Shown: positions 4,588 to 34,065, counted from the stretch's first letter. The stretch is DNA of 64,000 nucleotides from Prochlorococcus sp. AG-409-L14 (GCA_003215545.1 QCKF01000002.1:14276-78275); one strand, 5' to 3'. Made by a program: numbers and translations. The notes: generated by a model from the letters alone, not told the origin.

Positions 4588-4622
4588 GGAGTTCTCCGAA
4601 GTGACAAGATGACCCAGTACTT

Positions 4623-4650
4623 AAAAAAAGACCCGGGCCTAGGGCCCAGG
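4623..4650 (-). terminator. rho-independent terminator downstream of fda
   Basis: The minus strand reads CCTGGGCC-CTA-GGCCCGGG followed by TCTTTTTTT. That is an 8-bp stem with one G-U pair, sitting between fda and cbbA. Confidence 0.55.
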
Positions 4651-4763
4651 ACTGTAAAAGATCGAGGTAAGAAATGTCACCTATCTTTGAAGCATCAATG
4701 GCGTTTTTAAGTCAAAAATTTAGAAATTGAAGGATATAACTACTTTTTTGGTCATTGCTTACG

Positions 4764-8153: not shown

Positions 8154-8798
8154 TTAATGACCTAGAAGGTTTTGCCATAAATGCCACCACCAGCTAGGTC
8201 CAGTGAGCCAAGCTCCCCATATCCCTATGCTAATGAAAGGTGCAAAGGGAAAAGTTTGCAGTGGTTTTAGTTTTCCACTTATTAGGCCTACTAAGCTTAT
8301 AGCTCCAGCAAATATAAATGAAAGGGCTATCGCAGTTACTACACCTTTAATACCAAGCCAGGCTCCTCCCATTGCAAATAGTTTTGCATCGCCTAGTCCT
8401 AATACTTCCTTCCTAAGGTATTTAAATGAGAGTTTGCTCAAACCTTCCATGCATATTAATGAAAGAAAACATGCTGATAAATATTCAATGAAAGCAGAGT
8501 TACCCTTTTCAATTTCTATAATATAAATAGGAATTAAGTTGACAATAAAACCAATAAAAATTCCTAAATAACAGATTTTTAGAGGTATAACCATCCTTTG
8601 AGCATCTACCATTGAAATGTTTAATAATAGAATAGCTAGAGGTATGCTAGAAGATATAAATCTAAATCTAGAAGTCTCTATTATTCCTGCTGGGATAGTA
8701 AATGCAAAATAAAATGCAATGATGATCCCCAATAAATAATAATAGCTTGTTGTTGAATCTAATGTTTTCCGTACTAACGAGTTTAAGCTATCACTCAT
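8154..8798 (-). CDS. A24-family prepilin peptidase-like membrane protein (peptidase domain only)
   Basis: Polytopic membrane protein carrying the [16 protein letters not shown] active-site motif. No N-terminal methyltransferase domain is evident. Confidence 0.6.
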
Positions 8799-19391: not shown

Positions 19392-19526
19392 GGTAACTAG
19401 GTTTTTGAGAATTCTCCAGTGCTAACTCTTGATTAATTAACTGGGGTTAAAGAATCTTTCTGCCATCTGTTAAAGGGACGAAGGCCTAAGAAAAGAACTT
19501 GCTTTAAAAATAAACTTTAAAAAAGT

Positions 19527-20294
19527 TTAGGCATATTGGTTCGAGCTATTAGGACCATCTGTCAAATCAGTGTTCTTCATTACTTTATTCGCTTCTTCTA
19601 GTTTGATTTTGCCATCGTATAGAGCTCTTCCTACGATAACGCCTTTGACGCCATAATCCTCGAGTGGGACTAGAGACAATAAATCTGCAATGCTACCTAT
19701 ACCCCCTGAGGCAATTATTGGGACATCACTAGCAAGTGCCATCTCCTTCATCGCAGATAGATTTGGTCCTGAAAGTGTTCCGTCGGTTGCAATGTCAGTG
19801 GCAATTATTGCTGCAATTTCTATACCTTTTAGGCTTTCCGCTAATTCAGTAGCATAAACATTGCTATTACTTTCCCACCCTCTAGTAGCGACTTTTCCGT
19901 CCTTTGCATCTATTCCAATTATTATTTTACCTGGAAATTTCTGAGCCAGAGTCTTAATTAATTTTGGTTGCTCGATGGCTGCTGTCCCAAGAATAACCTT
20001 ATCAAGCCCTAATCCCAAAAGGGTTTCCGCACGTTCCATTGTCCGAACCCCTCCACCTAGTTGTATTGGGATGCTTAATGACTCAACTATTGCTCTAATA
20101 TTTTTGTCGTTTATAGGCTTGCCAGTTCTAGCCGCGTCAAGATCTACAAGATGCAATCTAGTAGCGCCTTGCTTTTGCCAGGTAATAGCTTGATCAACAG
20201 GGTCTTGGTTGAATTGAGTGACTTTGTTGTAGTCACCTTGGTTTAGCCTGACACAACTTCCTTGTAGTAGATCAATTGCGGGGATAATTTCCAT
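19527..20294 (-). CDS. hisA: 1-(5-phosphoribosyl)-5-[(5-phosphoribosylamino)methylideneamino]imidazole-4-carboxamide isomerase
   Basis: IIPAIDLL, HLVDLDAA, GGGVR, ASGGI and GVIVGRALY. Confidence 0.9.
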   Translation of the reverse strand: MEIIPAIDLLQGSCVRLNQGDYNKVTQFNQDPVDQAITWQKQGATRLHLVDLDAARTGKPINDKNIRAIVESLSIPIQLGGGVRTMERAETLLGLGLDKVILGTAAIEQPKLIKTLAQKFPGKIIIGIDAKDGKVATRGWESNSNVYATELAESLKGIEIAAIIATDIATDGTLSGPNLSAMKEMALASDVPIIASGGIGSIADLLSLVPLEDYGVKGVIVGRALYDGKIKLEEANKVMKNTDLTDGPNSSNQYA

Positions 20295-20392
20295 AAGAGA
20301 AGTAAGGCTTTTTGAAAATTATTATCTTTATCATTACTACCTGTTATTTAATAAAAAGGGTTTGAATGGTAACCATTCCATGATTTAAGGCT

Positions 20393-21313
20393 TTGAAAAC
20401 ACTAGTAATGGGTGGGACGCGATTTATTGGGAAGCCAATAGTAGAAAAGCTTCGAAGGCAAGGTCATCAAATTACTATTTTTACCCGTGGTAATAATCCT
20501 GTCCCAGCTGATGTTGAGCATTTGAAAGGCGATAGGAACACTAAGGAAGGTCTCGAAAGCCTTAATGGCAGAGCATTCGATCTAATTATTGACAGTTCAG
20601 CGAGAGAAAAAAGACAAGTACAGCATGTTCTTCAGATGACAGGTGTCCCTAAGCATAGGTTGTTGTTCGTAAGCTCAGCAGGTGTCTATTGTCAATCTTC
20701 GATATTGCCTATAGACGAGAAGGCTGAAATTGATCCATTAAGTCGTCATTTTGGTAAAGCAGAGACTGAAAATTGGTTATTAGAGGAAGGGATACCTTTT
20801 ACTAGCTTTAGACCTACATATATTTATGGTCCCGGAAATTACAATCCAATCGAAAGATGGTTTTTTGATCGAATTTGCAATAATAGACCTGTTCCAATGC
20901 CTGGAGATGGTTCTACGATTACACAACTAGGACACGTTTTAGATCTTTCTCAGGCTATCTGTAGAAGCGTTGATTCCGATATTGCTACTAACCGCATTTA
21001 TAATTGCTCAGGCAAAAAGGCTGTTACATTTTTAGGGCTAATAGAGGCTGCTGCTAAAGCTTGTGGTATAGATCCACAATCTATCAATAAATATTCCTTT
21101 AATCCTTCAACTATAGATCCTAAAGCTCGTAAAATATTTCCTTTGAGATTAACAAATTTTTATACAGATACTTCAAGATTAGAAAGTGATTTAGGATGGA
21201 AATCTAATTTTTCTCTGGAAGAAGGACTCTTGGATAGTTATAATAATGACTATAAATTAAATCCTTCTAATAATCCAGACTTTAGCTCCGATGATTTGTT
21301 GATCCAAGCCTGA
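20393..21313 (+). CDS. NAD-dependent epimerase/dehydratase-family protein (CSP41-like)
   Basis: KTLVMGGTRFIGK Rossmann motif at the N-terminus with a TTG start. Extended-SDR architecture. Confidence 0.75.
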   Translation: MKTLVMGGTRFIGKPIVEKLRRQGHQITIFTRGNNPVPADVEHLKGDRNTKEGLESLNGRAFDLIIDSSAREKRQVQHVLQMTGVPKHRLLFVSSAGVYCQSSILPIDEKAEIDPLSRHFGKAETENWLLEEGIPFTSFRPTYIYGPGNYNPIERWFFDRICNNRPVPMPGDGSTITQLGHVLDLSQAICRSVDSDIATNRIYNCSGKKAVTFLGLIEAAAKACGIDPQSINKYSFNPSTIDPKARKIFPLRLTNFYTDTSRLESDLGWKSNFSLEEGLLDSYNNDYKLNPSNNPDFSSDDLLIQA

Positions 21314-21860
21314 TATAGCCCCAAGCCGAAATAACAGCAAAAAATAACGAAATCCAGAAAAGATACAAACCAATTTTGTTGATTAACAGTAGAAAATCTT
21401 GATCTCCCCAGATCCCTGGATAAAGCAAGAAAAGAAAGCTGAGAAATTGTGTGGATGTCTTTGCTTTCCCAATTAAAGATGCTTTCCCACCATTCTTTGC
21501 AGAGCCTCTCCAGCTTGTTATAAGTAATTCTCTAGCCATTAAAAGCCAAATTGCCCAAAGAGGAAGAACTTCTATACTTGACAACCAAATTAAAGGAGCT
21601 AAGTAGAGAATTTTGTCTGACAAGGGGTCAAAACGTGCTCCCCAGAGGCTCCCACCTCCTGCTTTTTTTGCGAGCCATCCATCTACTAAATCAGTTGTAC
21701 TCGAAAGAAAAAATAGAGACCAAGCAAGAGATAAGTAGTCTTTTGAAAGGGCGAAAATAAGAGGGAGTCCAGAAATTGCCCTGAAAGTGGTTAATCCATT
21801 AGCTATTATTCTTAGATTGGATTTGCTCAAGGGATTCTTAGCTTGATTCAATAGGTACAT
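21282..21860 (-). CDS. pgsA: CDP-diacylglycerol--glycerol-3-phosphate 3-phosphatidyltransferase
   Basis: NGLTTFR, and DLVDGWLAKK...GARFDPLSDK, which is the CDP-alcohol phosphatidyltransferase motif. Multiple TM helices. Confidence 0.8.
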   Translation of the reverse strand: MYLLNQAKNPLSKSNLRIIANGLTTFRAISGLPLIFALSKDYLSLAWSLFFLSSTTDLVDGWLAKKAGGGSLWGARFDPLSDKILYLAPLIWLSSIEVLPLWAIWLLMARELLITSWRGSAKNGGKASLIGKAKTSTQFLSFLFLLYPGIWGDQDFLLLINKIGLYLFWISLFFAVISAWGYIRLGSTNHRS

Positions 21861-22330
21861 ATATATAGGATTCTATAGCTTCATATAACGAGTCAATTAA
21901 CCTTGTAGTCATCCTATTCATAATCGTTAAAAATTTATGTAATGCCATTGATTTCAGTTTTTATGGTTAAAACCGGTAGATTGATTTATGTTGCTTTCTT
22001 CAGTCGTCTCCTAAGCAGCATATTCAAAATTCCTTTTTTGCTCCTACTGAATTTTTATGCGATACTTTTGAAGTGACTTGTTTCTTAAAAAATGACAATC
22101 TTCCTTCTTTTGGTTTTAATGGGATCTTTAGTTTCAATGCTCTACATTGTACGCAGACTTGAAAAAGAGTAGCAGCTTGCCTAATTTATAAATTAAAGAC
22201 TTTGTTTCATATATTCTAAACATCCTCTTTTTAGATAAAAAAAACTTATTTCATTGTTAGTAAATCCTTATTTATATAATTTGAGATTGCCTTCATTGTC
22301 TACTAATCTATTTAAAAATAAGATTATTCA

Positions 22331-22948
22331 GTGGAAACATTAGCCTTAAAGCTACCTCCAGGTGCAGACTTGCGTAAAAGCATCGAGCTGGTCGGGGCTG
22401 AAAAAGCAAAGTCAGGATTTGTATTGGGTGTAGTTGGTAACCTTTCAAAAGCAGTATTTCAGTGTCCAGGCAAGCAGCTCCCAACTGTTTTGGAAGGCAA
22501 CCTAGAAATAATAACGTTGAATGGCACCTTCTCTAATGATGGCAAAGTGCATCTTCATTTGAGCCTTTCAGACGGGGAATGCCAGGTTTGGGGCGGCCAT
22601 TTAGAGCTAGGTACTAAGGTCCTTAAGGGAGCTGACTTACTTTTGGCTTGCATTGGAAGCGAAAATACCCAACTTAAATATGCAACTATTGAAAAGAAGA
22701 ACACACATAGACTTGAATTGGCTGTATTACCAGAATGCCCATGGTCCGAGAAAGCTATAAAGATAATAAGAAGAGAAAATATTCCATGCCTTATAACAAC
22801 AGTTGATAGTGATAGCCTCTCTAGGAATTATATTGATAGAAGCAAGACTTCTACTTTCCCACAAATATTCCTCGATGGAGAATTTTTAGGAGGATTTAAT
22901 GAATTATTCAAATTACATCAATCGGGTAAATTAAAGAGACTTAATTGA
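22331..22948 (+). CDS. fusion protein: PPC/DUF296 domain plus C-terminal glutaredoxin-like domain
   Basis: N-terminus LKLPPGADLRKSIE...HLHLSLSD...GGHL is typical of DUF296. The C-terminus has LPECPWSEKA (CPxS in place of CPYC) and TFPQIFLDGEFLGGFNEL (glutaredoxin TVPxxFI.G..IGG). GTG start. Confidence 0.6.
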   Translation: METLALKLPPGADLRKSIELVGAEKAKSGFVLGVVGNLSKAVFQCPGKQLPTVLEGNLEIITLNGTFSNDGKVHLHLSLSDGECQVWGGHLELGTKVLKGADLLLACIGSENTQLKYATIEKKNTHRLELAVLPECPWSEKAIKIIRRENIPCLITTVDSDSLSRNYIDRSKTSTFPQIFLDGEFLGGFNELFKLHQSGKLKRLN

Positions 22949-22957
22949 ATTTCACCA

Positions 22958-23173
22958 ATGGATAAAATAAATACTAAATCTTATTGGACTGATAAACCAA
23001 CTTGGTGTCAACCTTGGTCTATTATATTATCAGGTAGTTCTTTTATTGTTTTTATTCAGTATCTCTTTAAATTAATATGGTTAACTTGTCTCTTTTCAGT
23101 ATTAGTAGTGTTCTGGTGGACTTTGTTTCTGTTAATTGCGCCATCTTTATACCAAAGTCAGATTAAGGAATGA
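22958..23173 (+). CDS. small two-TM membrane protein (DUF6737-like)
   Basis: The KPTWCQPWSIILSG motif is followed by two hydrophobic helices. Only a 9-nt gap separates it from the preceding gene. Confidence 0.45.
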   Translation: MDKINTKSYWTDKPTWCQPWSIILSGSSFIVFIQYLFKLIWLTCLFSVLVVFWWTLFLLIAPSLYQSQIKE

Positions 23174-23338
23174 TCTTATAAGCAATAATTTATTTCAGTG
23201 GTATTGATACTTGTATAAGTTTCTCTTTGTGAACTTACAGACATATTCTCTAGTTTATCCCTGATCTCTTTTACTATCTATATTATCACAAAAAAAATTA
23301 ATCTAACAAGTTTTCTCAATGAATTTGAAAATTTTGGC

Positions 23339-24232
23339 ATGTCATCAGAATTTCTCATAAGGCCTTTGATGCCTAAAGATATTCCACTCATTACTTATTG
23401 GTCAAGGATTGAAGGATTTGCTCCAGGATTTGGTGACTTGACCATTTATAGGCATACAGATAGCCAAGGCTTATGGGTTGGATGCATAAATAAAAAACCA
23501 ATTGGATGTATAGCTGGTGTTAGATACAATTCTCTTTATGGGTTCTTAGGGCTTTTTATTGTTGTTAAGGAAGAAAGAGGAAAAGGGTATGGCATAAATC
23601 TTTGGAAACACGCTTTAGAGCATTTGAGTGATATTCCCTGCGTTGGTCTTGAGGCAGCAATTGATCGTGTTGATGATTATTCTCGGTGGGGATTTATACC
23701 ATCATCATTTACTACACGATGGAAAATAGATGCTGATTACTTAGAATATGAGGAACAATTTGATGAAATCTATGGATATGAAGGATTGAGGCTCTTGCTT
23801 GGTAATAAGATTCCAGAAAGTATTGTTCAGGCTTATGACGCTAAAAGAGAACCTAGTCCTAGGCCTCACTTTCTTGCTGATTGGCTTACACACCCTTCAG
23901 GACAAGTCTTAGCATTACTTGGAAGAAACAATAGTTGTCACGGCTTTGGGCGTATTCGGCCCTGTCTTATGCAAGATGGTGAGGATGGTTGGCGTATTGG
24001 ACCTTTGATAGCAGATACACCATACCTTGCTGAATTTCTACTAAGGAGATTAATTTTGAGGCATAAAGGTGAGATTTTGATAGATTCACCAGGAATAAAT
24101 GATAACGCAGGTAGGTTGATGAAGAAACTTAATTTTGACTATGTATCTCAAACCTTGCGTATGTATAAAGGTCACCAACCACCAATTTCGATGAACGATG
24201 TCTATAGTTTAGCTTGTTTGGAACTTGGCTGA
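23339..24232 (+). CDS. GNAT-family N-acetyltransferase with C-terminal YitH-like domain
   Basis: Acetyl-CoA binding segment VVKEERGKGYGINLWKHAL (Q/RxxGxG/A pattern). Confidence 0.65.
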   Translation: MSSEFLIRPLMPKDIPLITYWSRIEGFAPGFGDLTIYRHTDSQGLWVGCINKKPIGCIAGVRYNSLYGFLGLFIVVKEERGKGYGINLWKHALEHLSDIPCVGLEAAIDRVDDYSRWGFIPSSFTTRWKIDADYLEYEEQFDEIYGYEGLRLLLGNKIPESIVQAYDAKREPSPRPHFLADWLTHPSGQVLALLGRNNSCHGFGRIRPCLMQDGEDGWRIGPLIADTPYLAEFLLRRLILRHKGEILIDSPGINDNAGRLMKKLNFDYVSQTLRMYKGHQPPISMNDVYSLACLELG

Positions 24233-24290
24233 TAAATTACTGTTTCTAATATTCAAGAAGAGAATATAAATTTTGTATATGTATCTTCTA

Positions 24291-24494
24291 TTAATTTTGC
24301 TTTATTAATTTTTCCCTTTGTAATAACTTCTCTTTATTTAATTCATCTTCTAGTCCTTGTATGAGTCTAGTTACCAAAGCCTGAAATTCGGGCTGACAAC
24401 CTCTAAATGCTGCCTTATGCCGAATAGGCTCATTCCTTGTTCTTAGATCTGTGAGCATGAGCTGCAATGCATCAATTTTCGCATTGGTTTCCAT
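24291..24494 (-). CDS. hypothetical small helical protein
   Basis: 67-aa ORF, predicted helical and charged. No recognisable motif. Confidence 0.3.
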   Translation of the reverse strand: METNAKIDALQLMLTDLRTRNEPIRHKAAFRGCQPEFQALVTRLIQGLEDELNKEKLLQREKLIKQN

Positions 24495-24578
24495 GGATTT
24501 ACTCGCTAATATTTATAAGCATATGTGCTTCTGGTATCACTGCCTTATTTGTTTTTGAATTATGAAGAAAATTTTTCT

Positions 24579-24899
24579 TTATAATTGCTCATTTGGAGAT
24601 TTACTTTCTTCCTTTTGAGGTGTAGAACCATAGCATAATGATACTGCCATAGCTTCACGTCCCTCAGCACCGACGTTTCGTAGTGAAGGAATGAATTCAA
24701 GGAACTCATTAGTAGTATTAACACACTGGTTCCAGAGTTTTGCCTTTCTTTCGATAGGCCCAAGTCTTATGGCGATCAAAAGTAGACTAAGAGTACCTAA
24801 TGCTATACATGTTGTTTGGAATATATTGGATAAATCTGATTCTTTAGCAATGTCAAATATTCTCCTGATGTTGATTTTTTCCATTGAAGGCATTTTCAT
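24579..24899 (-). CDS. membrane-anchored Cys-motif protein, divergent paralog A of a local family
   Basis: A TM helix is followed by RLGPIERKAKLWNQCV. This aligns with RLGPIAQWAKTQNQCI (26076..26606) and LLPIAKWSKTQNDCV (28094..28306). Confidence 0.5.
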   Translation of the reverse strand: MKMPSMEKINIRRIFDIAKESDLSNIFQTTCIALGTLSLLLIAIRLGPIERKAKLWNQCVNTTNEFLEFIPSLRNVGAEGREAMAVSLCYGSTPQKEESKSPNEQL

Positions 24900-25063
24900 T
24901 TTAGAATATGCACCATATATAACATATGAACCTCGATCTCTTTGATTATATTTTTGTCCATAGTATACTTATTTTTAACGAACCTGATATGAGCTTTTTA
25001 ATTTTATTTAAATAAAATATAACTAACTATATTTAATCATACTACTGAGGAGAGTTGAAAATT

Positions 25064-25867
25064 TTATTTGTTTGCTGTCAAGGTGACAGACCTGAATTCT
25101 ATATCATCAATAGTCTTCCAAGCATTTTCTGATCTTTCTGATAGTTTTACATTCTTAAATCCTGCCTTGATAAAGTCATTAATAAAGTCCTCTTCTTGCC
25201 ATGCTCCACTTATGCAGCCACTCCATAGATCAGGATCCTTTTGTAAGGCAATCGGCACTATTTTATTACTCACTATATCACTAATAGCAATTCTTCCATT
25301 TGGTTGAAGGACTCTATAAATATTTGCAATAAGTTTATCTCTTTGTGAGTATGTTACAAGATTAAGCACACAATTACTAATTACTATATCTATACTTTTG
25401 CTCTCTATTAAAGGTCTTCCATTATTATTTAGATTATCAAGTGACTCTATAGAACCTTCAAGGAACTGGACATTTAAATATCCGATTTTATTGGCGACTA
25501 TTTTTAAAGCATCCCTTGAGACTTTTAGCATTTCTTTATTGCGATCAATACCTATTACATTTCCTGATTTGCCTGTAACCTGGGCACATATAAAGACATT
25601 TTTGCCAGTTCCACTTCCTAAATCTAAGACTTTATCACCAGGTTTTACCCATTTTGTTGGATCACCGCAACCGTAATCCAGTTCAATCACATTGGCTGGG
25701 ATGGCTCTTAGTAAATTTTGATCAAAACTTACTGGACTGCATAGGCATGCCTCTTTCTCAAGCGCAGCGGCCCCATATCTAATCTCAACTGCTTTTGTTT
25801 GGCCTGGCTCATTTGTGTCCAACCCTAGGAGATCCGAATTCCTTGTGTCGCAGCAATCTTCGTCCAA
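25064..25867 (-). CDS. arsM: arsenite S-adenosylmethionine methyltransferase-like protein
   Basis: YGCGDPT, SAM motif I VLDLGSGTGKN, VISNCVLNL and GRIAISD...WSGCISGA. The conserved Cys positions (N-terminal CC, YGCG, SGCISGA) fit the ArsM pattern. Confidence 0.65.
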   Translation of the reverse strand: MDEDCCDTRNSDLLGLDTNEPGQTKAVEIRYGAAALEKEACLCSPVSFDQNLLRAIPANVIELDYGCGDPTKWVKPGDKVLDLGSGTGKNVFICAQVTGKSGNVIGIDRNKEMLKVSRDALKIVANKIGYLNVQFLEGSIESLDNLNNNGRPLIESKSIDIVISNCVLNLVTYSQRDKLIANIYRVLQPNGRIAISDIVSNKIVPIALQKDPDLWSGCISGAWQEEDFINDFIKAGFKNVKLSERSENAWKTIDDIEFRSVTLTANK

Positions 25868-26075
25868 ATTAGAAATGGTTTTTAAAATGACACTTTACTA
25901 CTTCTACTTAACCTGATTAACTCACTGATAACATTAGCATCACAGTGGATAGGCGCACTTCACCATTCTCAACTCAATTAAATTAGTTTAATCCTTATTT
26001 CATAGTCATAAATAACTTGTTTATGTAGAATATTTGGTGTAAAACATAGAAGAAGTAAAAACTAGTTATTTCAAA

Positions 26076-26606
26076 GTGATAGACCCTCCAAACCTTATAG
26101 ACACAGAAAAGCAAACTGGAAAGGATGCTTACAAGCGGTTCTCCAAGCAAATAAAAGTTTTTATAGAACTTTTTGGTGATGTTTTAGAGACGTTAAAGTC
26201 AATATTAATAGCAATCTTATCTTTAATTCTTCTTTTATCACAGGACCTTTCAAAGGCCTTTAAGGATTATATGTCTCGCCCTTCAATTACACTATCAAAC
26301 TCACCAAAAATGAATTATACAAATACTCAAAGAATGACCACATCCTCTTCTTCTAATATTCCAGATAAAAAAGAAGACAGACCCAAGTTAGGAAAAGGAG
26401 ATAACAAGGTTAATACGTCTTACTTTTACCCTGTCATGGCAACTCTTAGCACCTTTGCCCTCCTTTGGGGAGGTGTAAGATTAGGACCTATAGCTCAATG
26501 GGCGAAGACTCAAAATCAATGCATAGAGTTGACAACAACAAATGATCCAAATGGTAATACTAATTTGAATACAAAAGTCATGAAATGCAACGGAGGTCAT
26601 GAATAG
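26076..26606 (+). CDS. membrane-anchored Cys-motif protein, paralog B
   Basis: The C-terminal 60 aa (TFALLWGGVRLGPIAQWAKTQNQCIE...KVMKCNGGHE) aligns with paralog C. GTG start is uncertain. Confidence 0.55.
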   Translation: MIDPPNLIDTEKQTGKDAYKRFSKQIKVFIELFGDVLETLKSILIAILSLILLLSQDLSKAFKDYMSRPSITLSNSPKMNYTNTQRMTTSSSSNIPDKKEDRPKLGKGDNKVNTSYFYPVMATLSTFALLWGGVRLGPIAQWAKTQNQCIELTTTNDPNGNTNLNTKVMKCNGGHE

Positions 26607-26831
26607 TTGTTTAGTTAGTTATAAAATTTCTTATATGTTCCAAAAAATCACGCAAAGTAAATTCATTATAGATATTCATCGCTTAAGTTTAGCGAGTGTA
26701 TTTATTTGTTTTAGATCAATTGGATAACTCTTAGGGCTAATTACCTAGGTACTTTATTTTTGGTGATTAATCCAGTTTTGGATAGAAAAACGTTGTATAT
26801 CTAACAGGTAACCTTTAAAGAGGTGCAAGTA

Positions 26832-26987
26832 ATGACCGAACTAAAGAAGCGCACTGGGCTAGATGAAAACAAGGATTCATACGATTTTTATTTCGAGTGC
26901 ATCACTGAATGCTCTTGGATAGGTGGTGAGGATGTTGAATGCGTTACACGCTGCAAGGAAAAGCATTTGAATCAAGAACTTCATTAA
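26832..26987 (+). CDS. unannotated 51-aa twin-Cx3C mini-protein
   Basis: Below the ORF-track cutoff. An AGAGGTG Shine-Dalgarno-like sequence lies a few nt upstream of the ATG. Translation is MTELKKRTGLDENKDSYDFYFECITECSWIGGEDVECVTRCKEKHLNQELH, with two Cx3C pairs. Confidence 0.4.
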   Translation: MTELKKRTGLDENKDSYDFYFECITECSWIGGEDVECVTRCKEKHLNQELH

Positions 26988-27002
26988 ACCTAAGTTCAAT
27001 AG

Positions 27003-27737
27003 TCATACGAGCAGTTGATCAAACAAATCTCGTATAAAGTTCTTCCTATCTAAAAGACTATTTTCTTGAAATCTTTCTTCTTCTGATAAAAGGATATATT
27101 CACCATTTGGACCTAAACCAGATTTAACAAAATTCAAGTCCTCTTTAATCCATCTTTCAATAGTTCCTTTTGTTGTTTCAACATGGAACTGAATTCCGAA
27201 AATATTTCGTCCTACTTGGAAGAATTGTTCTTTGCAAAATTCTGTACTAGCTAATAACTTTGCTTTTTTGGGTAGAATTATTCTGTCACCATGCCAATGC
27301 AGCGCATAAAAGCCTTTTTGTATATATTTGTCAAAGACCGACTCATCATCATTGGTAGCTTGTATTACTTTACCCCAACCAACTTCTGGGACATTGATGC
27401 CTTCTAGCCCTTTTCTTAATTCTTCTATATTGCCACCACATGTATAAGCTATAAGTTGAGCACCTAGACATACACCTATAATTGCTATGTTATTTTTTAG
27501 AGCATATTTAATTAAATTAATCTCTTTTTGAAGCCATGGATATCTTTTATCATGAATATCATTTAACCCCATAGGACCTCCTAAAATTAAAATAATATCC
27601 TCAGAAGAAGGGTTAGGAAGCATTTCTCCTAGATATATTTTGATAGTTTTGATAACATAATTTTTTTCTATGGCAATTTCTTTAAATAATCCAGGTCCTT
27701 CCCTTTCAACATGTTGCAGTATAAATATATAACGCAT
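27003..27737 (-). CDS. class I glutamine amidotransferase (stand-alone GATase1)
   Basis: Nucleophile elbow GVCLGAQLIA. Downstream HWHGD and the FHVE His/Glu pair. Confidence 0.8.
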   Translation of the reverse strand: MRYIFILQHVEREGPGLFKEIAIEKNYVIKTIKIYLGEMLPNPSSEDIILILGGPMGLNDIHDKRYPWLQKEINLIKYALKNNIAIIGVCLGAQLIAYTCGGNIEELRKGLEGINVPEVGWGKVIQATNDDESVFDKYIQKGFYALHWHGDRIILPKKAKLLASTEFCKEQFFQVGRNIFGIQFHVETTKGTIERWIKEDLNFVKSGLGPNGEYILLSEEERFQENSLLDRKNFIRDLFDQLLV

Positions 27738-27752
27738 TAGATAAGCATTCTT

Positions 27753-27782
27753 TAATTCTAATTCTAATTCTAATTCTAATTT
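27753..27782. repeat. hexanucleotide microsatellite (TAATTC)4 plus one imperfect unit
   Basis: Read directly: taattc taattc taattc taattc taattt. It begins 16 nt upstream of the GATase1 start codon (minus strand). Confidence 0.9.
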
Positions 27783-27837
27783 GTCATGCTCGAATTACTT
27801 TTTAATAATTAGACTAATCTTTATGCCTAAAGTTAAA

Positions 27838-27933
27838 TCAGTTATTTTTTTTGGGCAGTAGTAATAATACAAGTAAAGGAGCGATGCTAATTATTGGTAG
27901 GATTAGTAAAAGGTTTTGATCTGAGGTTTCCAT
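27838..27933 (-). CDS. possible 31-aa single-TM mini-protein
   Basis: The reverse strand reads METSDQNLLLILPIISIAPLLVLLLLPKKNN. One hydrophobic helix with a basic tail. No other support. Confidence 0.2.
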   Translation of the reverse strand: METSDQNLLLILPIISIAPLLVLLLLPKKNN

Positions 27934-28093
27934 TTAGAGATTCTATATTTACTAATGTAAGACTTTAGACCTGCCAGAAGCAGAAATTAGCTTAGATAGA
28001 TACAAAGCTCAACTTCTCTGGTTTTGTGGATTTAAAAAAGTATGGCTTCTAAGTACACTTTGATATTATAAAAAAGAAGAGTTATTTATTCTG

Positions 28094-28306
28094 ATGGAGA
28101 TCAAAAAGTTTGTTGGGATTTATTTTTATCCTTTCACTGCAGCAATTAGTACCTTATGCTTAATTACTATTTCTCTTTCTTTGTTGCCAATCGCTAAGTG
28201 GTCTAAAACGCAAAACGATTGCGTTGAAAGGACTTTCAGAGTTGATGGACAAAATAGTGCTGGTATACCTGCGAAGGTATGGAGTTGTAATGGTGGAGGT
28301 GAATAA
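28094..28306 (+). CDS. membrane-anchored Cys-motif protein, paralog C (minimal form)
   Basis: A 70-aa protein: TM helix, then LLPIAKWSKTQNDCVE...KVWSCNGGGE. It shares both Cys positions and the CNGGxE C-terminus with paralog B. Confidence 0.6.
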   Translation: MEIKKFVGIYFYPFTAAISTLCLITISLSLLPIAKWSKTQNDCVERTFRVDGQNSAGIPAKVWSCNGGGE

Positions 28307-28502
28307 AGAGCCTTGCCAGTACTAACCGAGAATTGTTATTCCACTGTCACTATCTTGGTTAGAAAAATGCTCTGATGCTTGCTGCCTGCTTACTGCTTTA
28401 TTAGCTAGTCTAGCTTTACCTAGCCTTTTTACTAAGCCTGAGAATGCTTTTAAGATAGTCATTTAAAAAAAGGTTTCTTTACTATGATGCCGCTATTGGC
28501 AA

Positions 28503-28512
28503 CCCCCCCCCC
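28503..28512. repeat. poly(C)10 homopolymer in AT-rich intergenic DNA
   Basis: Read directly (aa cccccccccc ttaatc), about 80 nt upstream of the ORF starting at 28595. Confidence 0.9.
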
Positions 28513-28594
28513 TTAATCAGTATTCTAGTCTTTCACAACAATTCTACGTTGATTTCAGGGCGTCAAATTTGCACTATCTCTAGAAACTTCCTCC

Positions 28595-28879
28595 ATGATC
28601 CACAGGATTTTATTTCTGATTTTCTTTTTCTCCTTATCCTTCTTGATTTTTCATTTGGTTAGAAGGAGGATTAGTACTCTATATTTCAAGATAAATGCAA
28701 ATAATAATATGAATCAATGGTTAAATATGTCTAAGGATCAAAGGAAGAAATCATATGAACGTTATCAAGTTGAGACATCAATTAGAAAGAAATCTCTTCT
28801 TGAGGAAATCAGAAAAGAATACACTAGTATTAAGAATGATAGGACATACAAAGGCAAGCCACCATTCTCACCTTTGTAG
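28595..28879 (+). CDS. hypothetical N-terminally anchored basic protein
   Basis: TM helix (ILFLIFFFSLSFLIF) followed by a Lys/Arg-rich soluble tail. No known motif. Confidence 0.35.
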   Translation: MIHRILFLIFFFSLSFLIFHLVRRRISTLYFKINANNNMNQWLNMSKDQRKKSYERYQVETSIRKKSLLEEIRKEYTSIKNDRTYKGKPPFSPL

Positions 28880-28910
28880 TTAATAGTTATTTATCCAAAA
28901 CTTATCTTTT

Positions 28911-29285
28911 ATGAGAGGAATGAACTGGCCCCCAAACAAGGCATGGACTAGCACAGACTTGCGTTTAGGTTATAGGCATTTTGTCGCTATTAACTATGGA
29001 GGTAAGGGTAAAGACAGATGGGTGATATTGGCCTCTGTTTTAGAGGCTGACTCCAGACTTAAAGTCTCCTGGAATGAGCTTAATGATAAAGAACGATGGA
29101 ATACTGGTTGGGCACAGCTTCCAAGAGATGAGGCCAATCCAGCATCCAATCTGGAAAAAACATTGAGTGGTATTTCGAATGAGTCTCAGGAATATCTTTG
29201 CTTGCACCCTTCAAGCGATTCTGGACTTTTCATACCTTCTCATGATAAGGAACTTAGGAGATGGTTTATAGAAGAGAACGAGTAA
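28911..29285 (+). CDS. Trp-rich protein (TIGR02450-like N-terminal domain with C-terminal extension)
   Basis: NWPPNKAWTS...GYRHFVAIN...RWVILASV...RWNTGWAQL matches my recollection of the picocyanobacterial Trp-rich family. Confidence 0.45.
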   Translation: MRGMNWPPNKAWTSTDLRLGYRHFVAINYGGKGKDRWVILASVLEADSRLKVSWNELNDKERWNTGWAQLPRDEANPASNLEKTLSGISNESQEYLCLHPSSDSGLFIPSHDKELRRWFIEENE

Positions 29286-29374
29286 GAATTAAGCTAAATG
29301 TTTTTACCATCAATCACAAAAAGGCTTCCAATTTAAAATAGTTGAGTTAAAAATGACTTAGTCTTATAGAGCAA

Positions 29375-29617
29375 ATGGTAACCAAACCTTGGGTTACATC
29401 CAAAAAGGCAAGTGAACTACTTGGTGTGAGTGAACAAACCCTTAATAAATGGCGAGAAGTTGGGTACCTAAAACCTGGAACACATTGGAGGAGTTCCCCT
29501 GGCTTAGGTCAGCAACCTTGGTCCCCTCAAGTTATTTACCATTTATTGTGGTGTAAGGAGAAAATAGAATACTGGCGAATGCATGACGCACCTTTGGATA
29601 AAGCTGAAGCAGCCTGA
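29375..29617 (+). CDS. small helix-turn-helix DNA-binding protein (excisionase/MerR-like)
   Basis: SKKASELLGVSEQTLNKWREVGYL is a canonical HTH of the excisionase/AlpA/MerR N-terminal type. Confidence 0.55.
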   Translation: MVTKPWVTSKKASELLGVSEQTLNKWREVGYLKPGTHWRSSPGLGQQPWSPQVIYHLLWCKEKIEYWRMHDAPLDKAEAA

Positions 29618-29748
29618 TTTGCTTTTTTATATAACTGCGTATCAATTAAGGATAATTTCTGGTTTTTCTCATTAACCTTTCACCTTCCTATCAGAAGGAC
29701 AGAAAGGTCTATTTACCTATTTAAAGTAGTTAGGCTTGTTTTAAAGAA

Positions 29749-29970
29749 CTAATTAACAAGCCCCTCATCCTTGCATCCTTCTATAGAGCTTTGTAGGACA
29801 GGATAAAGACTTATCATTCGACTGTAAGCCTCTGAACTTCTGTAGCAGGCTGCTTGCTTTCTATAATGATCTTCTGTTGCCATAAGGTTGTTCTTGATGG
29901 ATTCTCCTTCAATTCTGTTGGTTTCCATTTCCCCAAATGCAATGGATTCCCTCTTCTGATAGATGCTCAT
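29749..29970 (-). CDS. hypothetical protein
   Basis: 73-aa ORF with no motif recognised. Confidence 0.25.
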   Translation of the reverse strand: MSIYQKRESIAFGEMETNRIEGESIKNNLMATEDHYRKQAACYRSSEAYSRMISLYPVLQSSIEGCKDEGLVN

Positions 29971-30521
29971 TCAGCTTGGTAATCACTTTGTAAGAATAAT
30001 TACATAATTCACTTTACGATAGTTGATTTAATGCATTAGCAAGGAGGAGCTTTGCTAATTAACTTGAAACCAATATATTTATAATAAATTTGGAGGATTT
30101 CCCTGGATTCCGAGGATTGCACCCCACTTCTTTGATCCTAAATAAACGAAACTAGCTTAAAGGAAGCTAGTTTTTCTTGGGCACTTATACCTAGATATGA
30201 ATTAGTATATTTTTTTCATGATAAAGCAAAATTTGTACTTATGCAATGTATATATAAGACTTTATTGATTAACTAAACAGGTAAAAATGGAATAATTAAT
30301 AATTGAATAAAAACCATGACATCAACACAGATAGAATTAATTGGACAGTCTCTTGCTTACCATCCTCCTGTTGTAATAGGAACTTTGCTATTTTTTCAGA
30401 CTTTTAAAAGAAGGCTTTACTACCAAAATAAGAAAAAAAGAGAGCTAATAAATTCTAATTAGAAAAGAAATCCTATCCATCCTATATAAATAGGAGTATT
30501 TAGAAGCATATCCTTCCGTGT

Positions 30522-30689
30522 CTATTGAATTAATTCGGAGGGTAGTCCAGGAACAAATTTTTTGAAAAAAGTAATAACAAACCACAGGGCTAGAATGTTT
30601 CCAATCATTGCCAAAGCGAATCGAATTCTTAAATCCTTTATGAATGGGAGGATTGATTCCCATAATTGAAGTAGTGGACCACCTGACAT
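30522..30689 (-). CDS. possible 55-aa membrane mini-protein (alternative frame to track ORF 30445..30663)
   Basis: The reverse strand reads MSGGPLLQLWESILPFIKDLRIRFALAMIGNILALWFVITFFKKFVPGLPSELIQ. It has a clean TM helix flanked by positive charges. The overlapping 72-aa track ORF looks compositionally random. Confidence 0.35.
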   Translation of the reverse strand: MSGGPLLQLWESILPFIKDLRIRFALAMIGNILALWFVITFFKKFVPGLPSELIQ

Positions 30690-30967
30690 TGCTTTAGTTT
30701 TCTTGTTGAGAAGAAGAGTTAGGCTACATATCTATAAGTAAGGTCCTTAATGACCTGCGTTATAGACAGATTTTTAAAACTGCTAGGACAAGATGAAAAA
30801 CTCATGCCAGCGTTAGAACCTTAGCCTTTTATAGATACGGAATAACAACAACCTTAAGTCCAATAGGTATTTTGCGCAAATTTACACAATGTAAAAGTCT
30901 TGAAGCTAGTCAAATTCCTAGTGCGATTAAGAGTAAGGTCGTAGCGTCTTGCCGCTTTGCACTTCTA

Positions 30968-32020
30968 ATGCAGACCTATGGAAACCCAGGCGTCACCTAT
31001 GGATGGTGGGCTGGAAATTCTGGGGTCACCAATCGCTCAGGCAAATTTATTGCAGCACACGCCGCTCATACCGGTTTGATTGCTTTCTGGGCTGGTGCCT
31101 TCACCCTTTTTGAACTTGCTCGCTTTGACCCCTCGGTGCCTATGGGTCATCAGCCTCTTATTGCTCTGCCTCACTTGGCAGCGTTAGGCATTGGTTTCGA
31201 CGAAGCTGGTGCCTGGGTAGGTGGTTCTGCTGTAACTTCAATCGCAATTGTCCACCTTGTTCTCTCAATGGTTTATGGAGCAGGTGGACTACTTCATTCC
31301 CTACTTTTTGTAGGTGATATGCAGGATTCAGAATTAATTCAAGCTAGGAAATTCAAGCTTGAATGGGACAACCCTGACAATCAGACTTTTATCCTTGGAC
31401 ACCATCTGATCTTCCTTGGTGTAGCAAACATACAGTTTGTTGAATGGGCCAGAACACATGGCATTTACGATGCTGCTCTAGGTGCTGTAAGACAAGTTCA
31501 ATACAATTTGGATTTGACTCAAATCTGGAATCATCAATTTGACTTCCTATCAATTAGTAGTTTGGAAGATGTAATGGGTGGACATGCCTTCCTTGCATTC
31601 TTCATGATTGGTGGTGGAGCCTTTCATATAGCTACTAAGCAAATTGGTGAATATACCCAATTCAAAGGTTCAGGTTTGCTTTCAGCCGAAGCCATCCTTT
31701 CTTGGTCTCTGGCAGGTATTGGTTGGATGGCAATAGTTGCAGCTTTCTGGTGCGCAACTAACACCACTGTTTATCCAGAAGCTTTCTTTGGTGAGACATT
31801 AGCTCTCAAGTTCAGTATTGCTCCTTACTGGATCGACACTGTTGACCTACCTGATGGACTTCATACTTCCAGAGCATGGTTAAGTAACGTTCATTATTAT
31901 TTGGGATTCTTCTTTATACAAGGACATCTATGGCATGCCTTGCGCGCTATGGGCTTTGATTTCAAGCGTGTAGCTAATGCTATTGGCAACCTTGATAATG
32001 CAAGCGTTTCATTAAAATAA
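30968..32020 (+). CDS. pcb: chlorophyll a/b-binding light-harvesting protein Pcb (IsiA/CP43 family)
   Basis: MQTYGNPGVTYGWWAGNSGVTNRSGKFIAAHAAHTGLIAFWAG is the hallmark Prochlorococcus Pcb N-terminus. Six-helix CP43-like architecture. The start is set at the internal ATG at 30968, not the track start at 30872. Confidence 0.9.
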   Translation: MQTYGNPGVTYGWWAGNSGVTNRSGKFIAAHAAHTGLIAFWAGAFTLFELARFDPSVPMGHQPLIALPHLAALGIGFDEAGAWVGGSAVTSIAIVHLVLSMVYGAGGLLHSLLFVGDMQDSELIQARKFKLEWDNPDNQTFILGHHLIFLGVANIQFVEWARTHGIYDAALGAVRQVQYNLDLTQIWNHQFDFLSISSLEDVMGGHAFLAFFMIGGGAFHIATKQIGEYTQFKGSGLLSAEAILSWSLAGIGWMAIVAAFWCATNTTVYPEAFFGETLALKFSIAPYWIDTVDLPDGLHTSRAWLSNVHYYLGFFFIQGHLWHALRAMGFDFKRVANAIGNLDNASVSLK

Positions 32021-32049
32021 AGATTGAATCTTTATTAGTTCATCAAAAA

Positions 32050-32077
32050 GACCTCGTCACTCAGACGGGGTCTTTTT
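32050..32077 (+). terminator. rho-independent terminator downstream of pcb
   Basis: GACCTCGTC-ACTCA-GACGGGGTC (9-bp stem with one G-U pair) followed by TTTTT, 30 nt after the stop. Confidence 0.7.
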
Positions 32078-32670
32078 ATATGAGGCGTTCTTCTGCCTTC
32101 ATCTAATAGATTCATTTAAATAGTCTTTTTATATTGATGCAACAAGCTTTACTTTATGGCGACGAGTCAGCATCAAATGTATTGGTAAAAGAAACTTATA
32201 CCGATTTTTGAAATAGCCACGATTAAATTGCTTCATATAGTGTCATCGCTTTTTAATACCGCTATATATGGTAGTTGCATTCTTCCTGTAAATATCGCTT
32301 TATTGGTTGGAGTAGAAAAAACAAATGTCGATTAAAAACTTTCAGCTTCAGGCTAATTACTTCGATTCTAAGGACGAAGCGAAAAGACTTGTCTTCTCTA
32401 ATCCGAAAACTTTATTCGGATTATTTGAATTGCTACTGCATGCGGTACTTCTTATCTGTCTAATATAGAAATTTGTTTTTCTCTTTAATTAAATTGCTAT
32501 GAATATTTTTACCTTCTCCTCCTGGTAATTAGTATTAATTAATTCGGGTCTGATAATAGTGTTTTGAAACTCCTTTAGATTTTCTTCTTTTGTTACTATT
32601 TATATGCACTAACTACTAAAGTCTAATCCCAAGCTTTTTTGTCCTAGAAGTTTCTTAGCTCTATCAAGAG

Positions 32671-34065
32671 ATGGAATTTATTCTTGTTGGGTTACCTTTC
32701 GAAATTGAGATCAATACTTTTCCTGCTTTAGCTTTAGCCGGAGGATTGTTTTGCCTTTTAGCCCTGTTATTAAGTTTTGGGAGAAGACTTGAGCCAACTC
32801 TTAAGCTTGAAAGACTTGGTGTACCAATATCTTTGATAATCGGATTGGGAGCTGTCCTTATAGGTCCATATGGCCCAAGTCCTTTGCTGCCTCACTCAGT
32901 TACAGATGTTTGGATTCAACTTACAACGCCTTTACTCACTCTAGTTTTTGCAACTTTAATGTTAGGCAGGCCGCTGCCATCCCCAAAAGGACTTTGGTCT
33001 CCGGTCGCCTATCAAGCATCTTTGGGGCTTTTTTTGGGAATTGGCCAGTATTTTGTAGGTGGTTTAGTTGTTTCATATTTTCTAATTCCTAGGTTGAATG
33101 TTGATCCTCTAATGGGATGCCTTATTGAAGTTGGATTTGAGGGAGGCCATGGAGCTGCCGCAATAATGGGAGATACCTTTTTAGATTTAGGTTTTTCAAA
33201 AGGTATTGATCTTGGATATGCTATGGCTACTGTTGGCTTATTATCCTCGACAGTTATTGGAAGCACACTTGTAGTAATTGCAAGGAGTTTTGGCTGGTTA
33301 AATCCATATGATCCAAATGATACAAGTAGTACTGGAGCTAGTGATAAATCCATTGACATTGCCTCTCTTTTTAGAGACCTTGCCGTAAATTTAGGATTGG
33401 CAGGAATTGCCGTTGGGATTGGAATTTTTCTACTAGAATTTTTAAAGTTATTAAGTCCTATATTTGGACCAATGTATTCGAGAATAGCTGAGAATTTCCC
33501 TGTTTTCCCTTTGGTTTTAATTGGATCATTATTAGTTCGATATTTATTAGAAGTTACAGAAATGACTGGTGTAGTATCACAGTTATTGCAAAGAGAGATA
33601 GGCTCACTTGCTACTGATTTATTAATAATAACTGCAACTGCAAGTTTAGATCTATCAATCCTTAAGGAAGATTGGCAGGTTTTAGCAGTCTTGTCTTTGA
33701 CGGGATTAACTTGGAATTTATTTGCAATGCTGCTTTATGCAAGACTTATATTGAGAAATGATTGGTTTGAGCGCTCAATAACAGAATTTGGTAATGCTAC
33801 TGGAGTAGCAGCAACTGGTCTTTTGTTACTTAGACTCTCTGATCCACTGAATCTCACGAAGACTCTTCCTACTTTTTCAATAAAGCAGTTATTTCTGCAA
33901 CCTTTGTTATCTGGAGGTTTAATTACAGTTCTTGCTCCATTTATAGTTACTGAAATTGGACTTAAGTCCTGGACAAGTGTTTGTGGAATTCTTTCACTAT
34001 TGTTGGTATCTATACCAGCATTAATTCAATTTTATTTCAACAAAGAATTTGAATTAATCAATTAG
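32671..34065 (+). CDS. sodium/glutamate symporter-family (GltS/ESS) membrane transporter
   Basis: Polytopic protein. DPLMGCLIEVGFEGGHGAAA parallels E. coli GltS DPLMGLLAGSITLSGGHGTGAA. A second re-entrant-like segment is EFGNATGVAATG. Confidence 0.6.
   Translation: MEFILVGLPFEIEINTFPALALAGGLFCLLALLLSFGRRLEPTLKLERLGVPISLIIGLGAVLIGPYGPSPLLPHSVTDVWIQLTTPLLTLVFATLMLGRPLPSPKGLWSPVAYQASLGLFLGIGQYFVGGLVVSYFLIPRLNVDPLMGCLIEVGFEGGHGAAAIMGDTFLDLGFSKGIDLGYAMATVGLLSSTVIGSTLVVIARSFGWLNPYDPNDTSSTGASDKSIDIASLFRDLAVNLGLAGIAVGIGIFLLEFLKLLSPIFGPMYSRIAENFPVFPLVLIGSLLVRYLLEVTEMTGVVSQLLQREIGSLATDLLIITATASLDLSILKEDWQVLAVLSLTGLTWNLFAMLLYARLILRNDWFERSITEFGNATGVAATGLLLLRLSDPLNLTKTLPTFSIKQLFLQPLLSGGLITVLAPFIVTEIGLKSWTSVCGILSLLLVSIPALIQFYFNKEFELIN

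Follow-up and report, generated by a model that had tools for sequence, protein, structure and literature searches.

A family of small picocyanobacterial membrane proteins with a two-cysteine C-terminal module

Described small membrane proteins and the genes compared with them

Small membrane proteins are presented, in those parts of one review that deal with the proteins studied so far, as regulators of kinases, transporters, photosystems and oxidases (PMC12648545). The same parts describe MgrB as a protein with a single helix and two periplasmic cysteines, which needs its disulfide for function and binds PhoQ; one-helix subunits of photosystems and oxidases, such as PetN, the small photosystem II subunits and CioY, as chains of tens of residues that work only within big membrane complexes; and the Hok/Gef toxins as proteins of about 50 amino acids (aa) whose C-terminal extensions bear cysteine (PMC12648545). 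Here we describe a family of small membrane proteins through three of its genes, paralogs A, B and C, which lie in a stretch of 64,000 nucleotides (nt) from Prochlorococcus sp. AG-409-L14 (GCA_003215545.1, QCKF01000002.1:14276-78275), hereafter called the window. The source genome is a draft of 1.15 Mb in 35 contigs and is 64% complete. A first-pass annotation of the window had taken the three for a local family of membrane-anchored proteins that share a C-terminal two-cysteine module ending in CNGGxE; the open reading frames (ORFs) are present as listed in Table 1 with the peptides it quoted, and membrane-anchored proteins with a two-Cys C-terminal module is what our analysis also finds.

MgrB (47 aa, enterobacteria), as far as the review portrays it, is likewise a small one-helix protein with two conserved cysteines, an outward side being suggested for the picocyanobacterial family by its charges; MgrB acts on a larger membrane protein, which it binds with its helix and its periplasmic portion. 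It differs in having no sequence relationship to the family (no Pfam or NCBIfam match), in its lineage and in lacking the longer helical hairpin, whereas the picocyanobacterial family is multi-copy and falls into five or six subfamilies. The small subunits of photosystems, cytochrome b6f and oxidases, in the same partial account, share the small one-helix form, and the conserved helix face of the picocyanobacterial family suggests helix-helix docking; however, a profile search of 177,635 distinct PDB sequences found no chain of the family. These subunits are usually single-copy and without a Cys-stapled ectodomain. Hok/Gef toxins such as HokB are portrayed there with a single helix, functional cysteine in a C-terminal extension and several chromosomal copies, while the picocyanobacterial family is vertically conserved and under purifying selection, and no homology between the two was found. 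Type IV pilins and pseudopilins have a long N-terminal helix with a proline kink, a C-terminal disulfide and paralogs that share the helix, and they vary C-terminally, in contrast to the present family, which varies N-terminally and is conserved C-terminally. CHCH/twin Cx9C and twin Cx3C proteins of the mitochondrial intermembrane space are helix-loop-helix proteins held by Cys-Cys links in an oxidising compartment; they are soluble and have two disulfides of fixed spacing, unlike a family with one Cys pair 16-29 residues apart and a membrane anchor. On these comparisons the family would belong with small membrane proteins that bear a periplasmic Cys pair, with no homology to MgrB or to photosystem or respiratory subunits.

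Extent, subfamilies and age of the family

The elements common to the family are a hydrophobic helix with an S/T-x-x-L stripe, a Pro, N-x-C, a loop of 16-29 residues and V-x-x-C-N-G at or near the C-terminus, all of which A, B and C carry, the one exception being the C-N-G of A, in which Y replaces N. In an alignment of 125 members, Cys43 and Cys65 (numbering of C) are invariant, and the next most conserved residues are G67 (123 members), V62 (114), N66 (113), L23 (111), N41 (107) and P32 (93), with S19 (82) and I26 (77) as further membrane-helix positions. The shared ending first given as CNGGxE has to be reduced to N-x-C...V-x-x-C-N-G as the universal motif, the second Gly and the acidic end occurring in some subfamilies only. 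The sharing of the membrane helix and the two-Cys module stands, although the module reaches further towards the N-terminus than first stated, to a Y-P that immediately precedes the helix (in 27 of 33 long forms and in 7 of 10 that are C-like). The tail of A, thought to have diverged, is normal for its subfamily apart from the one Asn-to-Tyr change: all six A orthologues end in ...AM.V.LCNGS(T/N).. after a 29-residue loop, five of them with CNGSTPQ, the change is unique among the seven A-type sequences, and Tyr occupies that position in 4 of the 125 family members.

The source genome holds three further copies of 78-80 aa on contigs C1, C20 and C7, and a profile of the six genome copies matched 458 proteins at E<=0.01, from 646 candidates in a 5.8-billion-protein collection. 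An exhaustive HMMER pass over 1.84 billion representatives returned 186 clusters (50% identity) at E<=0.001, so that the case, entertained at the outset, of there being no homologs outside this locus falls away. With a profile of 125 sequences, which scores 1.7e-27 (B), 9.8e-27 (C) and 6.5e-21 (A) as E values in the source genome itself, members turned up in 153 of 251 genomes from the window's taxonomic family (32 of 43 genera) and, in a class-wide count, in 13 of 15 from the picocyanobacterial family and in none of 185 from 35 other cyanobacterial families. Judged by these profile matches, the protein family is restricted to picocyanobacteria (Prochlorococcus and close marine relatives), and with further copies in the same genome, a picocyanobacteria-wide distribution and at least five or six subfamilies it is not the three-member local family it had seemed. 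All 64 confirmed core-type loci (64/64) in the named species collection were from Prochlorococcus, the cultured strains among them presumably being low-light-clade isolates, and the named members are all 'hypothetical' or 'uncharacterized' Prochlorococcus proteins (e.g. UniRef100_A9BC51).

Genomes carry between 1 and 8 copies. One genus with genomes of 1.6-1.7 Mb has 1-3 copies and is positive in 19/19 genomes; the one copy read is of the FCNGG type (below) and falls in a 90%-identity cluster of 1014 members, those read being mostly of metagenome origin. Several other small-genome genera have 4-8 copies per genome. The longest real members among those listed have 200 aa, and one open frame of 206 aa was also seen; three very long representatives (P0121, P0252 and P0253; 612-994 aa), considered as fused forms, were instead translated tandem repeats.

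Grouping of representatives by loop length and tail gave five subfamilies: a core type of about 77 aa with a Cys loop of 16-18 residues and the ending CNGRSKVYQVK; the long form, to which B belongs (147-200 aa, 33 representative clusters), with a loop of 21 and the ending KVM.CNGGH[DE]; the short form of C (about 70 aa), also with a loop of 21, ending in KVWSCNGGG[DENQ]; an FN.CVEE...FCNGG type of about 80 aa (55 clusters) with a basic N-terminus, a loop of 16-18 and the ending FCNGG; and the long-loop type of A (about 100 aa), with a loop of 29 and the ending AM.V.LCNGSTPQ. A further conserved subfamily of about 80 aa, with ...IELVPVSRQAAYWNRC...VCNGAVYEPKLK and also WNRC...VCNGAVYEPKLK (loci L164-L175, e.g. 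G047:C1:1643675-1643884), matched A only weakly, so that the family has more branches than the five first sorted. The most distant subfamily, the FCNGG type, still aligned to the long form in hhalign with 95.1% probability (E 2.9e-8, 51 columns). Members of the FCNGG type (e.g. L028 1483-1716 and L005 1498-1737) also have a third near-invariant Cys, present in at least 90% of 29 sequences, within the basic N-terminal segment (K-K-C-S-G-K-K-like), which would face the opposite membrane side from the Cys pair.

A, B and C resemble one another far beyond chance: BLASTP aligned B and C with 46% identity over 61 ungapped residues (E 6e-18) and gave E values of 5e-8 for A-B and 0.004 for A-C. The remark that their nucleotide sequences had diverged while the peptide motif was kept holds, since B and C are 55% identical over 183 nt and use different codons at 18 of 28 identical residues, and A and B are 44% identical over 114 nt and do so at 12 of 15. 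Each has orthologues elsewhere, 24 retrieved for C (50-65% identical), 28 full-length ones for B among 121 sampled genomes, and six for A in other genera, the five closest being 47-49% identical. Differences at codon positions 1/2/3 amount to 0.30/0.19/0.59 among C orthologues (25 sequences), 0.37/0.32/0.60 among those of B (21 sequences) and 0.42/0.27/0.62 over 68 codons among those of A (7 sequences). Third positions thus differ most (0.59-0.62 against 0.19-0.42), and the copies group with the orthologues of other genomes, which bears out the earlier idea of protein-level selection and old duplications. These codon patterns show that A, B and C are real conserved coding genes and that their subfamilies are under purifying selection.

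In a quick maximum-likelihood tree of 64 columns, many of whose forks are unresolved, A falls inside a 16-row A-type clade (Shimodaira-Hasegawa-like approximate likelihood ratio test, SH-aLRT, 97), B inside a clade of 35 rows (84) and C among sequences of its own type (85); types B and C come together (91), and the FCNGG type separates from all others (97). Subfamily labels change 12 times on this tree, against a shuffled mean of 68. By this placement, A, B and C are old paralogs, one per subfamily, without recent local duplication.

That the motif belongs to no named family was also our result, no Pfam, NCBIfam, PADLOC or PHROGs profile being a fit. A, B and C matched 0 Pfam families at E<=1 and at E<=10 and 0 NCBIfam families; the 125 members matched 44 Pfam families, none by more than two members among the 25 rows listed, and 13 PADLOC families, each by one member and with no consistent defence model; PHROGs matched 0 of 6 members. 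The sole match of the profile in the PDB, 8qag, is a designed coiled coil that scores through its repeated hydrophobic helices. Searches with the model of C likewise returned nothing specific from the PDB with Foldseek (best E 4.1) and generic long helices and coiled coils only from 48,161 chains with VIA-align (best Z 5.5). No description of the family was found in full-text literature searches, which covered neither subscription-only papers nor bioRxiv supplements, or in keyword-searched reviews.

Predicted fold, orientation and possible roles

The overall architecture of the family is highly probable. AlphaFold2 modelled C, in which the entire protein is the shared module, at a mean predicted local distance difference test (pLDDT) score of 87.9, with helices at residues 3-29, 31-49 and 58-65 and a break at the Pro, and B at 78.5, with module helices at 114-156 and 164-171. 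In these models the membrane helix is predicted to run on outward and to kink at the conserved Pro, and the short C-terminal helix to fold back on it; by helix register, Cys43 would lie opposite Cys65 and Asn-Gly would end the last helix. Ahead of the module, B has an extra helix whose middle reaches a pLDDT of 91-95 (best 17-residue window, mean hydropathy 2.05), followed by a linker that, among 34 orthologues, is 50-92 residues long with a Lys+Arg density of 0.18. Helix and linker are conserved in the long subfamily, and the helix is absent from short forms.

The positive-inside rule is the established basis for deriving orientation from charge. N-termini of the FCNGG type are very basic; among long forms, 25 clusters have more Lys+Arg before the module helix than after it and 4 have less; and the C-terminal module of the long form has the lowest Lys+Arg density of that protein (0.11 against 0.18 and 0.21). 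With moderate confidence, we infer from these charges that the N-terminus is cytoplasmic and that a hairpin of some 35-45 residues lies in the periplasm or thylakoid lumen. Both compartments are oxidising in cyanobacteria, so a disulfide is expected in a module that faces them, and the Cys pair would form a staple there. Of the disulfide-closed extracytoplasmic loop proposed in the first-pass annotation, the closure accords with the predicted hairpin, which fits a Cys-Cys staple, while the outward orientation is deduced from charges only.

The conserved stripe of the 125-member alignment occupies positions 19/20, 22/23, 26/27, 30, 33, 37, 40/41 and 44, a spacing of every three to four residues that places it on one helix face. 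Through this face of Ser, Thr, Ala and Leu the helix most probably contacts a different membrane protein or further copies of the same one; in the short forms a second helix that could pack against the stripe is absent, which points to docking on a membrane protein or to self-association. The reading that we tentatively favour, without counting it as probable, gives these proteins the role of small subunits, accessory or regulatory. They would dock through the helix face onto larger membrane proteins and complexes, the disulfide-stapled hairpin would be an exposed contact or a redox-sensitive element, and different subfamilies might serve different partners or conditions. MgrB and the small subunits of photosystems and oxidases work by such docking (PMC12648545).

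Several observations weigh against this reading or against the orientation it assumes. Short forms are nearly balanced, with more Lys+Arg on the N side in 39 clusters and the reverse in 34; core-type proteins end in a tail rich in Lys and Arg; and the two helices of the long form cannot both be placed by charge because its N-terminus and its linker are both basic. The genomic context indicates no partner, since A, B and C neighbour unrelated genes on mixed strands (GNAT, S-adenosylmethionine methyltransferase and class-I glutamine amidotransferase), the only recurrent neighbour of the core-type gene is a 173-aa membrane protein at 26 of 64 loci, and B and C lie within 5 kb of each other in just 4 of the 22 genomes that have both (G000, G064, G277 and G286).

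A more specific version, in our estimate improbable, would make the proteins lineage-specific, redox-switchable one-helix adaptors, each old subfamily sitting on a different thylakoid or plasma-membrane complex and reporting lumen or periplasm redox through its disulfide. Their targets would include such assemblies as antenna and photosystem complexes, which also differ between ecotypes; the smallest genomes would keep a minimum of one copy, and other small-genome lineages, which we take to be the low-light-adapted ones, would have expanded the set to 4-8.

Small size, a single Cys pair, several copies per genome and a variable region would also suit secreted disulfide-loop peptides, whose helix would be cut off as a signal or leader to set free the C-terminal 35-45 residues for signalling or antimicrobial action; the FCNGG type even has the requisite basic N-terminus followed by a hydrophobic stretch. 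We nevertheless consider such a peptide unlikely: the helix face is conserved across subfamilies (L23, S19, I26 and P32, with the counts given above), which is unusual for a signal peptide, the model has a continuous helix that crosses the membrane boundary and enters the part with the cysteines, inspection of the sequences reveals no shared small-x-small cleavage motif after the helix, and no processing or export genes adjoin.

The loop between the cysteines, at first called variable, merits that name in B, whose mid-loop identity among orthologues is 0.18, and to an intermediate degree in A (0.36), but not in C, where it is as high as in the flanks (0.69; flanks 0.57-0.83 overall). If the family were a surface receptor or decoy under phage pressure, this loop would be its exposed, diversifying surface, and the long-form mid-loop is indeed far more variable than its flanks (0.61-0.62); the position of the copies at a lower-GC synteny break and the recurrence of paralog clusters in other genomes would fit as well. 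However, the C-type loop is conserved like the rest of its protein, the variable B loop may simply be an unconstrained linker, and a hairpin of 35-45 residues on an inner-membrane or thylakoid anchor would be out of reach of phages because that anchor lies under the outer membrane. Nor was a phage homologue found: with the core, C and FCNGG types as queries, tblastn matched none of 50,697 phage records, confirmed pattern matches in viral contigs numbered 0/11 for the long form and 0/103 for the FCNGG type, and the C model met nothing specific among BFVD viral structures (best E 2.1). Atlas searches returned unnamed cyanobacterial clusters only, and the label 'Viruses 50%' on one of them (phylum known for two members) is unsupported because no phage or viral-contig match was confirmed. 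With no consistent defence-model match either, the receptor, decoy and signalling roles and the link to phage islands suggested earlier gain no support, and we think a decoy decidedly unlikely.

A cytoplasmic module in which the two Cys and a C-terminal His, Asp or Glu bind metal without a disulfide, perhaps across a dimer, would explain why the long form ends in C-N-G-G-H-[D/E] and has C-[I/V]-E after its first Cys; the Lys/Arg-rich C-terminal part of the core type, cytoplasmic by the positive-inside rule, and the nearly balanced short forms would also be accommodated. It is still less plausible, as conservation across subfamilies extends to C, C-N-G, V and N but not to the His and acidic end, the basic N-terminus of the FCNGG type and the 25-to-4 charge bias of the long form point the opposite way, and a metal is poorly held by just two Cys.

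In their size, their single helix, the Cys near the C-terminus, the several chromosomal copies and their place in variable regions, the proteins recall type I membrane toxins of the Hok/Gef kind, multi-copy and restrained by antisense RNAs. Type I toxins usually have a patchy, fast-evolving distribution, whereas this family has been inherited throughout an entire taxonomic family, with orthologous subfamilies that are stable, purifying selection and presence throughout the small-genome genus positive in every genome, and no Pfam toxin family was matched; a toxin is thus very improbable.

Non-canonical pilin-like proteins processed by the window's Peptidase_A24 (Table 1) are barely credible. 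In their favour, a long helix kinked at a Pro some 19-23 residues into its hydrophobic part in the models and a C-terminal disulfide recall pilin anatomy; Peptidase_A24 occurs in 5/5 genomes tested with an N-methyl motif and PilB-type ATPase in only 2/5, so that in G011 and G064 the peptidase has no recognisable substrate or machinery; and a basic leader with Gly ahead of the helix is seen in 26 of 45 clusters of the FCNGG subfamily. Against them, this Gly is missing from A, B and C (B and C have Y-P there, A neither), the module of B is preceded by more than 100 residues with a further helix, no subfamily has Glu at position +5 (Gly/Ser in FCNGG, hydrophobic or small in the others), N_methyl matched none of the seven members scanned even at E<=10, and a pilus ATPase (T2SSE/PilB) was found in G051 and G058 only, not in G011 or G064 (99% complete; 4 and 7 family copies) or in G000 (64% complete).

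The locus, its neighbours and the significance of the family

Table 1. Features of the window discussed in the text, in positions of the 64-kb stretch
Feature	Position	Strand	Basis or description
Paralog A	24579-24899	minus	ORF, 106 aa; 29-residue-loop subfamily (...RLGP..RQA..WN.C...AM.V.LCNGSTPQ...)
A shared module, residues 24-92	24624-24830	minus	Alignments; hydrophobic helix, Pro48, Cys59, 29-residue loop, Cys89, Y-G
A cysteines	Cys59 = 24723-24725, Cys89 = 24633-24635	minus	Alignments
Paralog B	26076-26606	plus	ORF, 176 aa, GTG start; long two-helix subfamily ending KVM.CNGGH[DE]
B extra N-terminal long helix, residues 14-67, hydrophobic core	26115-26276	plus	AlphaFold2 and subfamily alignment
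B charged variable-length linker, residues 68-113	26277-26414	plus	Low pLDDT, 51-57
B shared module, residues 114-176	26415-26603	plus	Y118-P, membrane helix, Pro138, W142, Cys149, 21-residue loop, Cys171, N-G-G-H-E
B cysteines	Cys149 = 26520-26522, Cys171 = 26586-26588	plus	Alignment
Paralog C	28094-28306	plus	ORF, 70 aa; short subfamily, 21-residue loop, ending KVWSCNGGG[DENQ]
C cysteines	Cys43 = 28220-28222, Cys65 = 28286-28288	plus	Alignment
Flanking gene	17721-19391		DUF3685 protein
Flanking gene	32671-34065		464-aa protein
GC dip	19400-32700		Stretch with short ORFs
Small ORF downstream of B	26823-26987	plus	54 aa
Antenna-type protein	30872-32020	plus	382 aa; Photosystem II (CP43/CP47/Pcb-type antenna) family match
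Three small genes around A-C	22958-23173, 28911-29285, 29375-29617	plus	
Aldolase genes	3514-5831	minus	Class II and class I fructose-bisphosphate aldolase
Prepilin-type peptidase	8154-8798	minus	Short Peptidase_A24, 214 aa

The two housekeeping genes that flank the trio lie 84-384 kb apart in five complete relatives, and GC content dips over the stretch between them; together, separated flanks and the GC dip suggest that the copies occupy a variable spot, a synteny break or islet. Most family copies are scattered in complete genomes, though not without clusters: in G016, 3.2 kb hold one copy of the A type, one of the C type and another that is A-like, A and C are 2.1 kb apart in G021, C and an A-like copy 2.6 kb apart in G281, and B and C 0.6-3.2 kb apart in G064, G277 and G286. 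B and C considered as a conserved gene pair did not hold up, as a hand tally puts them on separate contigs in 15 genomes and, in three complete ones, at distances of 470-730 kb. Within the window no kinase gene is linked to A, B or C, and no tRNA gene occurs in it. Scans for promoters and terminators, uninformative in this AT-rich genome, gave 8 promoter-like sites against a shuffled mean of 18.3, with none near C. Among sequencing runs searched with positions 24400-28400, one DNA run (0.06 share of words) was listed and no RNA run.

Directly downstream of B is a 54-aa ORF with a twin C-x3-C, no hydrophobic helix and no Pfam match. Its relatives number 2-4 copies per genome; among 14 in five genomes, 3 have a Cys-loop member within 2 kb, where rough chance would give about 0.2, and more of them stand near C-type or core-type copies at loci L112, L039, L056 and L089. 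The small genes around the trio include one for a DUF6737 membrane protein and one for a DUF2389 tryptophan-rich protein; the third, of 80 aa, has a weak, below-cut-off HTH_17/MerR (excisionase-like) match that may hint at past mobile DNA. The antenna-type protein is encoded 2.6 kb downstream of C. Elsewhere in the window, the two aldolase genes adjoin each other, and the prepilin-type peptidase gene stands among housekeeping genes 16 kb upstream of the trio.

Prochlorococcus genomes are among the most streamlined of free-living phototrophs. Genomes of 1.7-2.0 Mb nonetheless keep 4-8 diverged copies of this gene. Small membrane proteins are often overlooked or left 'hypothetical', and a defined family with subfamilies, a predicted fold and invariant residues is a concrete experimental target, for which a tractable marine Synechococcus with one to a few copies could serve. 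The family is also a candidate marker that varies in copy number among picocyanobacterial lineages. Should its members prove to be redox-switchable adaptors, the regulation of photosynthetic membranes would have a layer not seen before, in the phototroph that is most abundant in the ocean.

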